Made by a program: the position numbers and the translations under genes
Shown: positions 59,103-62,337 of the stretch, one piece after another
How the letters are laid out: each line of letters starts with the position of its first letter
Numbering within the stretch: the first letter of the stretch is position 1
The notes under the pieces: generated by a model
What the model was told of the DNA's origin: nothing
Database searches by the model: none
The model's input: only the letters and a program-made list of their open reading frames with translations
IMG/VR virus record: IMGVR_UViG_3300028840_004348
Length of the DNA: 64,000 bases
Direction: 5' to 3' (one strand)
Source: a virus

Positions 59103-59137
59103 AACTCTTTCTCAACATACAGTGAACAGATCTCTCG
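59103..59137 (-). repeat. Left arm of an about 35-bp imperfect inverted repeat flanking the CRISPR array; contains the promoter-like motif CTGTATGTTGAGA
   Basis: Revcomp of 59103-59137 matches the plus strand at 60052-60086 at 31 of 35 positions. Confidence 0.6.
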
Positions 59138-59154
59138 ATGTCATGGACCGTGCT

Positions 59155-59917
59155 GTCGAGACTTCTAACCCGTCTCGCAGGGATTGAAGGATCGAACTCC
59201 CAAGATCTGGAGGCCCGCGATGCCGAAGTCGAGACTTCTAACCCGTCTCGCAGGGATTGAAGGGCGGTGCGGGTCCTATCATCGCTACTTGGGACATCGG
59301 TGTCGAGACTTCTAACCCGTCTCGCAGGGATTGAAGGAAATGGAGTCCATCGAACCCAACATCGTCGAAATGTCGAGACTTCTAACCCGTCTCGCAGGGA
59401 TTGAAGGTAACTAGACTGAGAATAGCTTGGTTATGTGAAATGCGTCGAGACTTCTAACCCGTCTCGCAGGGATTGAAGAAACGTGTTGAAAACGTGCTAC
59501 GAGCCGGACAACATGTCGAGACTTCTAACCCGTCTCGCAGGGATTGAAGGGAAGCTACCGTCGCCTACGCGACCAGCGAGCCCATCTGTCGAGACTTCTA
59601 ACCCGTCTCGCAGGGATTGAAGGATCGATAGCCGGGCGGCGCACGCCTCCGTTGCGCTGTCGAGACTTCTAACCCGTCTCGCAGGGATTGAAGGCGGAGC
59701 GATCTCGCCGGGCAGTTCGAGCCACAACTCCGGGGGTCGAGACTTCTAACCCGTCTCGCAGGGATTGAAGGCGGTTTTCCGCCTCGGTACCCGAGGTCGG
59801 ATCAAGATGTCGAGACTTCTAACCCGTCTCGCAGGGATTGAAGGGAGTGAAAAGATCGACGCCCTCTCGTGATGCTGCTTCGTCGAGACTTCTAACCCGT
59901 CTCGCAGGGATTGAAGG
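59155..59917 (-). CRISPR. CRISPR array: eleven 36-bp repeats GTCGAGACTTCTAACCCGTCTCGCAGGGATTGAAGG (plus strand), ten spacers of 34-41 bp
   Basis: Repeats at 59155, 59228, 59302, 59372, 59444 (last base G>A), 59515, 59588, 59659, 59736, 59809 and 59882. Spacers are unique. Minus-strand orientation puts the hairpin CGAGAC-GGGTTAGAA-GTCTCG plus AC directly 5' of each spacer. Confidence 0.9.
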
Positions 59918-60051
59918 GGCGCGTTCCGCGACTTCAATGATCGCGGCGAGATAACCACCCGATTTCGAGCGGTCCGTTTTTCGCTCGAACGCGCTCCCGA
60001 TTTTTTCAATCATTTCGAACGATGAACTCCTCCACCGATCCACCGCTCGAA

Positions 60052-60086
60052 AATCGAGAGATCTGTTCACTGCATGTTGTCAAAGA
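60052..60086 (+). repeat. Right arm of the inverted repeat flanking the CRISPR array, between the array and the cas12-like gene's 3' end
   Basis: CGAGAGATCTGTTCACTGCATGTTGTCAAAGAGCTT. Confidence 0.6.
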
Positions 60087-60098
60087 GCTTTCGAACTT

Positions 60099-62297
60099 CT
60101 AAGACTCTAGAGGAGCCGGGCCTTCGCCGTTCCGCTCCTCTTCTTCCTTTTTCCGCTTCCGAACGACTTTCTTCCCCTTGTTCCGGTTCTTCTGAGCGTC
60201 CGACATCTCCCGCACGAGCACGCTGCCATCGGCTATCTTGACGATCTTGTTCTCTCGGTACAGCCGCATCATGTTCCGGGCCGCGTTCGCGTCCTGGTCC
60301 CAGGTGCGACCGCACTTCTCGCAGGTGTGCTCCACCTTCGGAATCGGGTCCCAGGGCGCATCGTGCCCGCAGTCGAAGCAGCGCTGGGTGGTCATGGCCG
60401 GGTTCACCCAGACGACCGTGCCGCCACGCGAGAGGAACGCCTGGATGAGCGTCTCGCGGAACTCGGAGAGCGCCGCTTCTTTCTGCTGCCGCCGCGCCCG
60501 CCGGATCTCGACCTTGTCGCTTCCCGGAAGCTCATGCTTCTGCATCTTGCTCAGATCGATATTTTCGAGCACGAGGACCTTGAACTCCCGCGCCAGCGCA
60601 GAGTCCACGCACCGGTAGTGATCCTCGCGCTGCAACAGCGACTTGCGCCGCTGGCTCTCCTGCCACTGCCAGAGGTGCCGGTCGCCGCCTTCGAGACGCC
60701 GCGCCTCCTCGTCGTAGACGCCTCGCTGCCAGCGGTCCAGGATCTCGAAGCCCCGTTCGTCCCCCTTCCACCGCGACTCCCTCCAGAGCCGCAGCAGCCA
60801 CGCGAACCGCTTGGGGGCCTCCCACTTGGCGATGCCCCGGGTCGACTCCCTGAACCACTTCGGCAGCGCGCTGCGCCGCGCCTTGATCCACGCCCGAAGC
60901 TCGGCCAGCATTTCGTTCTGCTTCAGCTGCCGGGTCTGCTGGAGCGTTTCGACGCGCTGGAACCCGGCGACCACCTTCGACGACATGCACTGCTCGTGGC
61001 CCACCTCACCCTCGTCCGGGTTCTTAAGATAGGCGGCGTACTCTCGATCATCGATCAGGTACGCGATCCGGATTCGGGGCACCTCCACCTCCTGCTTCCG
61101 CAGCCCCCGCTTCTTCCGCTTCCTACCCATCTCCACCGTCTCGGTCCCTCGCTTGCGCCAACCGATATCGACGGCCACGACCCCGCGCCCCGTCCCGTAG
61201 TCCTTGTGACAATCCCCCGAATCCACCTCCAGATGGAGGTGCAACGTCCACCGGAGCCGGGTGGTGATCTTCTCCCGCTTCACGACCGCCCACTTGATGC
61301 GCGCCTTCGGAGGCAGCGGACGATGCATGATCACTGGGAACTCCGCCCAGATGGGATCACGACCGCTCTTTCCGCCGCTGCCGACCCGGATTCGAGCGAT
61401 GCCGCGTCGACGTATCCTCCGATGCCGGAGCACCTCCTCCCCCATCTCGGGCTCCATGTCCAGCTGGAACATGGTGTTCTGGCAGTTCAGGACGCGCTCG
61501 ACGGAATCCCCCTTCTGGAGTTCGACGCCGAAGATCACCTCATCATCGAGACTCTTGAACTTGGGGTCTCGCTCGACCCAGATGCCCTTCTCCTCGTTCC
61601 ACTTCCAGAGGCTGTCCCTCAGCGACATCCGAGAAGCCTCCCGCGCCCTGTTCACCAGGAGATAGGTCCCCCAGTAGAGCTTCCCCAGCTCCTCGTCCGT
61701 CTCGGTCACCTTCTCGTAGGTTCCATCCTTGAATTGCACGTAGGCTTCGTGCAACTCCTGCTTCTCCCGCTGCTGGGCTTCCGCGCGCCGAGCCTTCAAC
61801 TCGTCGCTTAACTCCACCTTCTTCCTCGGCTCCTCCTTCCCCGGCTCGTCGTCCGACTCGGAACCGTTCTTCAACTCCCGCAGCTTTGCCCACGCCTCGT
61901 TCTTGAGATCGCGCACCTCCCGGAGACGCATCCGCTCCTGCGGGGTGTCGGACCGGGATCGAGACCTCTTGCGCTTCGTCCTGAGATCCTCCTGCATCTC
62001 CCGGAGGAGCTTTTCGAGACGCTTGACCTCGGTGAAGGCTTCCCGCATCTCGTCGCTCGCCCCCATCAGGTCCAGAGTGTGCTGCTGGTAGATTTCCCGA
62101 AGAGTCGCCCGCAGACGACGCTCCGCCTCCACACACTGGTTGTTGTACCGCTGCGACAGGACGATCTGCTTCTCCACCAGTTCGGCGTTCTTCGTCGGAC
62201 CGAACGGCAGCCCATACACATAGGCGAGCTGGGGACCTCGGACCCTCGGCTTGCCCGGCTTCTTCTTCCGTTTCGTCTTCGATGTCTTGCGCGTCAT
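60099..62297 (-). CDS. Compact type V CRISPR effector (Cas12-family, RuvC/TnpB-like; CasPhi/Cas12j-like by size and context), 732 aa
   Basis: RuvC-I VVAVDIGWRKRG, RuvC-II VLVLENIDLSK, zinc finger CFDCGH...CEKCG and RuvC-III DQDANAARNM at the C-terminus. Lies 181 bp from the array on the same strand. No cas1/cas2/cas4 nearby. Confidence 0.8.
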   Translation of the reverse strand: MTRKTSKTKRKKKPGKPRVRGPQLAYVYGLPFGPTKNAELVEKQIVLSQRYNNQCVEAERRLRATLREIYQQHTLDLMGASDEMREAFTEVKRLEKLLREMQEDLRTKRKRSRSRSDTPQERMRLREVRDLKNEAWAKLRELKNGSESDDEPGKEEPRKKVELSDELKARRAEAQQREKQELHEAYVQFKDGTYEKVTETDEELGKLYWGTYLLVNRAREASRMSLRDSLWKWNEEKGIWVERDPKFKSLDDEVIFGVELQKGDSVERVLNCQNTMFQLDMEPEMGEEVLRHRRIRRRGIARIRVGSGGKSGRDPIWAEFPVIMHRPLPPKARIKWAVVKREKITTRLRWTLHLHLEVDSGDCHKDYGTGRGVVAVDIGWRKRGTETVEMGRKRKKRGLRKQEVEVPRIRIAYLIDDREYAAYLKNPDEGEVGHEQCMSSKVVAGFQRVETLQQTRQLKQNEMLAELRAWIKARRSALPKWFRESTRGIAKWEAPKRFAWLLRLWRESRWKGDERGFEILDRWQRGVYDEEARRLEGGDRHLWQWQESQRRKSLLQREDHYRCVDSALAREFKVLVLENIDLSKMQKHELPGSDKVEIRRARRQQKEAALSEFRETLIQAFLSRGGTVVWVNPAMTTQRCFDCGHDAPWDPIPKVEHTCEKCGRTWDQDANAARNMMRLYRENKIVKIADGSVLVREMSDAQKNRNKGKKVVRKRKKEEEERNGEGPAPLES

Positions 62298-62325
62298 CTC
62301 AATCTCCCATAGCTCGCATCCTCAG

Positions 62326-62337
62326 TTAATATACAAG
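62326..62337 (-). promoter_or_regulatory. Promoter-like extended -10 motif (cTTGTATATTAAc) about 28 nt upstream of the cas12-like ATG
   Basis: Same motif family as upstream of many other minus-strand genes; followed by GGGAGATTGAG RBS. Confidence 0.45.

Follow-up and report, generated by a model that had tools for sequence, protein, structure and literature searches.

The 64,000-nucleotide (nt) viral record IMGVR_UViG_3300028840_004348 from IMG/VR, which at its whole length is called the window hereafter, carries a compact type V CRISPR locus (short palindromic repeats that are clustered and regularly interspaced), consisting of a single effector gene and an array. The effector gene cas12m (60099..62297, minus strand) has a GGGAG Shine-Dalgarno sequence 6 nt before its ATG and encodes a type V-M protein of 732 amino acids (aa) with a WED-REC-RuvC-zinc finger architecture. 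It is followed on the same strand by a leader of 181 nt (59918..60098), reaching from the cas12m stop codon to the first repeat, and by the CRISPR array (59155..59917), in which eleven 36-nt repeats, reading CCTTCAATCCCTGCGAGACGGGTTAGAAGTCTCGAC as transcribed, alternate with ten spacers. Leader and array together are enclosed by the two arms of a 38-nt inverted repeat.

The window encodes a large terminase (PHROG, E=4.6e-41) and a helicase, the matches to tail-fibre and baseplate proteins are weak, and nearly all genes lie on the minus strand. Of the contigs found to carry the 732-aa protein, the longest extends over 188.5 kb. No Cas1, Cas2 or Cas4 was detected with PADLOC among the 66 predicted window proteins at E<=0.01, and no Cas1/2/4-type Pfam match was obtained for the nine small genes located up to 4 kb past the window end on the effector side. 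An earlier note, made from the sequence letters alone, had already described the 732-aa open reading frame (ORF) with its RuvC triad and CxxC...CxxC zinc finger, the eleven repeats and ten unique spacers 181 bp downstream on the same strand, the phage context and the lack of cas1, cas2 or cas4 nearby, and all of these observations were reproduced. Its overall reading stood in part: the locus is type V, phage-borne and minimal, but the proposal that it follows the CasPhi/Cas12j pattern, or represents a distinct compact type V lineage, was overturned by the comparisons described below.

Assignment of the effector to the Cas12m family

The subtype-level evidence for Cas12m is unambiguous, with profile, sequence and fold in agreement. 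V-U1 is the old name of type V-M/Cas12m, and the PADLOC profile Cas12u1 was aligned at E=3.1e-76 with residues 24-680 of the protein, over profile positions 4-530 of 533. When all PDB sequences were searched, the best match was Cas12m 23vw (E=3.5e-47) in two stretches, residues 120-382 and 433-679, with further matches to UnCas12m4a (1e-16), Cas12m2 (3e-11) and GoCas12m (2.5e-10); Cas_phi3 reached just 1.5e-4, confined to RuvC-II/III. Both the profile and the PDB sequences align the N-terminal half of the protein, where the earlier note had seen no recognisable match, with the WED/REC region of Cas12m. A literature search found no paper on 'Cas12m4' as the source of PDB entries 23vu, 23vv and 23vw.

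Fold comparison was based on an AlphaFold2 model built on a five-sequence alignment. The top four Foldseek matches of this model were all Cas12m (E=1e-22 to 2e-16), then came Cas12f at 2.5e-9 and CasLambda at 2e-3, and CasPhi gave no match at E<=0.001. The Cas12m fold, composed of WED, REC with a REC2 insertion, RuvC and zinc finger, is the best structural match of the 732-aa protein. The call of a RuvC effector, for which profile and sequence searches and structure prediction with a fold search had been proposed as checks, was upheld by them. Membership in Cas12j/CasPhi or CasLambda was ruled out by sequence, profile and fold. A TnpB protein of the IS200/IS605 or IS607 type (OMEGA) was also considered and rejected: the NCBIfam model guided_TnpB scored 60.6 bits against a cut-off of 100 and covered residues 556-678 only, a CRISPR array stands in place of an omega-RNA, and no transposase was seen among the neighbour genes of cas12m.

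The family is very large: at E<=1e-30 an exhaustive HMMER search recovered 3108 cluster representatives, whose median length is 612 aa; a word-indexed homologue search had returned only five proteins, probably swamped by low-complexity words rich in lysine and arginine (K/R). The 732-aa protein is longer than the median because of insertions rich in lysine, arginine and glutamate at residues 9-21, 151-165, 187-202, 392-408, 419-429 and 526-537. In a neighbour-joining tree it pairs with an IMG/VR protein represented by two loci, L009 and L010, at 47% identity over 700 aa. This pair sits inside the D-E-D radiation together with MsCas12m (31% identity) and ApCas12m (27%), both values being computed on trimmed columns, and the H-D-D proteins Mm and Go are distant at about 20%. 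Four clades of Cas12m have been distinguished, namely clade 1 with HEK/HQK, clade 2 with HDD, clade 3 with DED/NED and clade 4 with DED/DND/NED (PMC10442227). Given the D-E-D placement and this published scheme, the 732-aa protein belongs to clade 3 or 4. It is shown to be a full-length member of the Cas12m family from the D-E-D branch.

The catalytic positions support a canonical RuvC site. Asp377 of RuvC-I (codon 61167..61169, minus; motif VVAVDIGW) falls in a column with D in 130, N in 18 and H in 3 of 152 family members, and is aligned with the H of the Mm/Go HDD triad and with the D of Ms and Ap. Glu578 of RuvC-II (60564..60566, minus; VLVLENIDL) is matched by E in 139 and D in 5 of the same 152 proteins, and Asp669 of RuvC-III (60291..60293, minus; DQDANAARN, with D667/D669) is invariant (152/152). 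The zinc finger/TNB domain (60312..60380, minus) contains C640, C643, C659 and C662, whose columns are cysteine in 144-152 of 152 sequences; this C-terminal zinc ribbon is all that Pfam recognises in the protein (Cas12f1-like_TNB, E=1.1e-13, residues 612-676). In the WED domain, His325-Arg326 (61320..61325, minus) are aligned with the Mm motif 'VHRWLP' and correspond to H269/R270 of Cas12m2, for which a role in the processing of precursor CRISPR RNA (pre-crRNA) has been proposed (PMC10442227). The histidine is conserved in 51 of 60 family members and the arginine in 60 of 60; a role of H325/R326 in RuvC-independent self-processing of pre-crRNA is putative. Two of the four residues that contact the protospacer-adjacent motif (PAM), W209 and Q261, are kept in the alignment with Cas12m2.

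The array, its guide handle and the enclosing inverted repeat

Ten of the eleven repeats are identical and one has a single substitution, and the ten unique spacers are 34-41 nt long. A 20-nt core of the repeat was matched 11 times, where chance would give 0.01 matches, and has no further copy in the window. Folding of the repeat yields a 6-bp stem with a 9-nt loop and a 3' AC. For comparison, the window repeat was aligned with six Cas12m handles that have been used in experiments (Ms, Tf, Ap, Un, Go and Mm; Table S5, PMC11013384) and with the repeats of 15 related phage loci. Pairing across this alignment amounts to 96% in the stem, where each of the six pairs shows compensatory changes, and to 72.5% in a pseudoknot that the loop forms with the segment lying 5' of the stem, where GC/CG/UA swaps occur. 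The observed score was reached by none of 500 shuffles, and sliding the register lowered pairing to 33-40%. A 'stem and pseudoknot' architecture has been described for the CRISPR RNA (crRNA) of Cas12m2 and GoCas12m (PMC10442227 for Cas12m2). Each repeat is thereby shown to carry a Cas12m-type handle (pseudoknot, 6-bp stem and 3' GAC) directly 5' of the spacer, and the array must therefore be transcribed from the minus strand, co-directionally with cas12m. Neither an anti-repeat of a trans-activating CRISPR RNA (tracrRNA) in the 64-kb window at <=3 mismatches in 20 nt nor any match in a permissive Rfam scan of the locus was found, which on computational grounds fits the tracrRNA-independent guide of Cas12m.

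The exact repeat was not found in IMG/VR or in the genomes of 185,579 species, and a metagenome scan with the repeat returned only L058, a different element. In the Logan contig SRR6963591_19578 (L001 6340-6375), which derives from the same phage, the 11-repeat array is collapsed to a single repeat, and the array content of such assemblies is unreliable. Variation within arrays was seen in two related loci: the repeats of L006 (11667-12366) are strongly heterogeneous, being 81-100% identical to their consensus, and midway through the L058 array (3090-3400) a second repeat variant takes over, in which the stem changes are compensatory (CGGGAC/GTCCCG). Arrays whose extension has ceased might be expected to diverge in this way; in the window array ten of the eleven repeats are identical.

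The leader is homologous to that of L010, the conserved blocks being TTCTTTGACAA and GGACCGCTCGAAATC, the second of which is also present in L058. The motifs TTCTTTGA(C/T)AA and GGACCGCTCGAAA are common to the window leader, to L010 at 7900-8086 and to L058 at about 2950-3090. These three phage loci of the sub-clade are otherwise unrelated. The motifs could be promoter or regulatory elements of the array. A scan of the locus for sigma-70-like promoters and intrinsic terminators gave nothing above shuffled expectation.

The upstream arm of the inverted repeat (60053..60090) begins 9 nt downstream of the cas12m stop codon; the downstream arm (59102..59139) is located 15 nt past the final repeat, and 95 nt separate it from the next ORF. 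The arms bracket exactly the leader and the array. They are complementary at 34 of 38 positions (89%). No other inverted repeat of at least 26 nt within 3 kb occurs in the 64-kb window, the motif is found nowhere else (0 matches expected by chance), and no longer gapped homology exists between the arms. In comparison with the homologous leader of L010, the upstream arm has an inserted core. In both the minimum free energy and the centroid folds of a 1-kb transcript, the arms form the closing stem of the whole pre-crRNA. Two of the four differences between the arms are G.U pairs on the sense RNA only, and the duplex is more stable in sense (-61.4 kcal/mol) than in antisense (-51.8 kcal/mol); this weakly suggests pairing at the RNA level. 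Ribosomal RNA (rRNA) operons carry RNase III-type processing stems. The inverted repeat is specific to this phage. The leading guess, made by pure inference, is that it might form a long RNA stem at which a host RNase III-type enzyme excises or stabilises the pre-crRNA within a long co-directional transcript. Other guesses would be a relic of recombination, an invertible segment, or operator sites acting as a pair, the arm having AGATCT at its core. It is rather doubtful that either of two roles applies: that the arms pair (-61 kcal/mol) as an rRNA-operon-like RNase III stem and make leader and array a self-contained RNA cassette, or that they are operator or recombination sites switching the array on, off or around.

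The spacers range from 36% to 71% in GC content, with a mean of 57% against 59.5% for the window. Being ten in number, diverse and of wide GC range, they look like sampled foreign DNA. Their sources were sought at several levels. No protospacer for any of the ten spacers was present in the window at <=7 mismatches. A blastn search with the whole array in 50,697 phage records of GenBank and 72,556 plasmid records of PLSDB gave one chance match (E=0.7), and spacers 1, 2, 3, 5 and 8 were not found as exact 24-mers in IMG/VR. About 230 spacers from 21 related arrays, compared with all fetched loci, yielded chance-level 15-20-mers only. Spacer 11 of locus L033 matches 19 of 20 nt within the terminase gene of the window (8945-8964), which at E=0.004 per query is at chance level for about 230 spacers tested.

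Related modules on viral contigs

A motif-seeded scan of IMG/VR yielded 49 loci, of which about 40 are near-full-length matches and many belong to contigs 100-245 kb long. In more than 25 loci an array on the strand of the effector follows 30-270 nt downstream. When one genome per species (185,579 species) was scanned with largely overlapping motifs, a single weak relative, L059, was found. This gives only a hint, the motif patterns being narrow, that the Cas12m sub-radiation L009-L048 may be predominantly virus-borne. In the flanks of 12 related phage loci there was no strong Cas1-type match among the matches listed, and weak Cas2/Cas4 matches are possible.

The closest relatives are L010 (UViG_3300017963_000003, 192 kb) and L009 (UViG_3300017971_000213, 129 kb). 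They share with the window a near-identical repeat (CTTACAATACCTGCGAGACGGTTTAGAAGTCTCGAC), a homologous leader and the same gene-array layout; their own arrays have 17-18 repeats. Unlike the window they lack the bracketing inverted repeat, the REC insertions and the K/R insertion of 21 aa that follows RuvC-I, and apart from the module itself there is no synteny in the flanks. A near-identical repeat and homologous leader in the absence of flanking synteny suggest that the gene-plus-array module moves between phages.

Among characterised systems, the D-E-D proteins MsCas12m, ApCas12m, TfCas12m and UnCas12m (PMC11013384) share with the window locus the family profile, the WED-REC-RuvC-ZnF order, the D-E-D triad, a repeat of 36-37 nt with pseudoknot, stem and 3' GAC handle, an array downstream of the effector, and the lack of tracrRNA and adaptation genes. 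The 732-aa protein differs from them in being about 100-200 aa longer, in residing on a phage of about 188 kb, and in having its array bracketed by the 38-nt inverted repeat. Cas12m2 and GoCas12m (PDB 8HHL, 8PM4), in contrast, have an H-D-D RuvC site that binds a single Mg2+ and are plasmid- or chromosome-borne in actinobacteria. The CasPhi/Cas12j systems of huge phages resemble the locus in that a compact single effector with an array is carried by a large phage without adaptation genes; the use of a phage-carried CRISPR system against rival elements would be a functional parallel. A large-phage contig without Cas1, Cas2 or Cas4 in the window is common to V-J and V-M and hence does not discriminate between them. 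In V-M, an array without an adaptation module is a family trait (PMC10691335), so that the absence of this module is not a CasPhi-like peculiarity.

Phage-borne V-M is already known, and the window locus adds one more Cas12m. MvCas12m of myxophage MV-1 was called the first phage Cas12m in a September 2026 preprint (bioRxiv 10.64898/2026.09.14.751636). Compared by description only, it is phage-encoded like the window locus and likewise has an array beside it and an intact D-E-D triad, lacks cas1/2/4 and tracrRNA, and has yielded no protospacers; it has 610 aa and 8 spacers, against 732 aa and 10 spacers in the window. The claim of priority is contradicted by UnCas12m, which was obtained in 2024 from an IMG/VR viral scaffold (PMC11013384), by a 2024 review stating that V-M is 'also encoded by some prophages' (PMC11656645), and by the roughly 40 IMG/VR loci. 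The 732-aa protein does not appear in the searchable text of Table S1 of Bigelyte et al. (PMC11013384).

The 450-aa gene directly downstream of the array (57654-59006, minus) matches HTH_Crp_2 (E=1.3e-3) and, at its C-terminal end, HTH_17 (E=6e-3), both weakly and below threshold, and its product may be DNA-binding, and a 151-aa HTH_Crp_2 protein is encoded about 3 kb upstream of cas12m, just outside the window (L001 629-1084). A small protein (56355-56798, minus) contains a Peptidase_M78/ImmA-IrrE-like HEMGH motif (Pfam, E=7.6e-5). Peptidases of the ImmA/IrrE-like family are usually linked to induction switches and to the cleavage of phage repressors. Elsewhere in the window, a nucleoside deoxyribosyltransferase-like protein (36088-37035, minus; PHROG, E=8.6e-50) may be connected with the salvage of nucleotides or the modification of DNA bases in this phage, and two phage-encoded tRNA genes lie on the minus strand, tRNA-Glu(TTC) at 28139-28213 and tRNA-Cys(ACA) at 40839-40911, the ACA anticodon being unusual for Cys.

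Probable cleavage-free binding and its alternatives

The locus, a type V-M (Cas12m) module of a large tailed phage, probably acts through crRNA-guided, PAM-dependent, cleavage-free DNA binding. A roadblock without cleavage is the most likely mode of action because every characterised Cas12m, four D-E-D proteins included, binds without cutting. Bigelyte et al. (2024) tested eight Cas12m proteins, four of them with D-E-D (Ms, Ap, Un and Tf), and none cleaved double-stranded DNA (dsDNA); DNA or RNA was cut neither in cis nor in trans by purified Ms and Go. Six Cas12m proteins bound DNA in a PAM-dependent manner with T- or C-rich PAMs, binding of DNA was by itself enough to protect E. coli against phages and plasmids, and pre-crRNA processing was Mg-dependent and unaffected by a RuvC D-to-A mutation (PMC11013384). 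In addition, Omura et al. converted the H-D-D site of Cas12m2 to D-E-D without regain of cleavage (PMC10442227). In the phage studied here, the ribonucleoprotein would recognise a short 5' T- or C-rich PAM and form a stable R-loop of about 17-20 bp; the bound complex would then stay on its uncut target and block transcription and/or replication. The likely targets would be competing phages or plasmids in the same host, in superinfection exclusion or inter-element competition, and host genes would be less likely targets than such rival elements. As in other V-M loci, acquisition of the spacers presumably took place in trans or in an ancestor.

Several points weigh against this interpretation. 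The search for adaptation genes covered the window and about 4 kb beyond it, and the other ~124 kb of the ~188-kb genome lie outside this range. The confidence of the AlphaFold2 model is moderate (pLDDT, the predicted local distance difference test score, 67; pTM, the predicted template modelling score, 0.40). No protospacer was found, hence neither targets nor PAM can be read from the spacers. The bracketing inverted repeat is absent from 19 of 19 related loci, which weakens the claim that it is functionally important. Furthermore, the canonical triad is intact and D-E-D is kept in most of the family, so that some RuvC-dependent activity is arguably under selection, and identity to the tested D-E-D Cas12m proteins is only 27-31%.

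The last two points are also those on which a different mode of action would rest, namely that this Cas12m-family protein is an active RNA-guided DNA nuclease or nickase that destroys rival DNA as CasPhi does. The D377/E578/D669 triad is accompanied by an intact zinc finger and retained across most of the D-E-D radiation, and the protein is divergent from those tested and carries lineage-specific insertions. Nevertheless, such an activity is unlikely in view of the four out of four D-E-D proteins (Ms, Ap, Un, Tf) that did not cleave dsDNA and of purified Ms, which cut neither DNA nor RNA in cis or in trans (PMC11013384). Restoring D-E-D in Cas12m2 likewise gave no cleavage (PMC10442227), and the closest solved structure was deposited as 'DNA-binding protein Cas12m' despite its D-E-D. 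Cleavage is kept as a minority possibility because the triad is conserved in most of the family and identity to the tested proteins is only about 30%.

A binding-only mechanism would also suit regulation, and the module might then be a programmable repressor of host genes or a timer of the phage's own expression rather than a defence of the phage. The locus is part of a block of small, early-type genes that all run in one direction, HTH proteins and an ImmA/IrrE-like peptidase are encoded nearby, and the spacers have no match in any phage or plasmid sequence searched. This role is nonetheless improbable: no spacer matches the 64-kb window within the mismatch limit given above, ten diverse spacers of such different GC content resemble sampled foreign DNA more than a fixed regulon, and characterised V-M systems interfere with plasmids and phages (PMC11013384; PMC11656645). 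Finally, that the effector is a Cas12j/CasPhi relative or belongs to a distinct, unclassified compact type V lineage is hardly credible, being refuted by the sequence, profile and fold comparisons.

The assignment to Cas12m corrects a tempting misclassification, since a compact phage Cas12 without cas1 and cas2 is not automatically CasPhi. A divergent, longer D-E-D Cas12m and a small sub-clade (L009, L010 and L058) are added to the family, and phage Cas12m proteins are candidate compact DNA-binding platforms for CRISPR interference (CRISPRi), base editing and epigenome editing. If the RNase III stem were true, a host RNase would take part in crRNA biogenesis of a tracrRNA-less type V system. 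If either the stem or the operator/recombination reading were true, it would represent a new layer of CRISPR-array control, in a phage with a cleavage-free Cas12m as a natural CRISPRi weapon. The sub-clade could also help to address why D-E-D is kept in proteins that do not cut DNA. The frequent occurrence of cas12m-array modules on large viral contigs supports the view of V-M mainly as a weapon between mobile elements.

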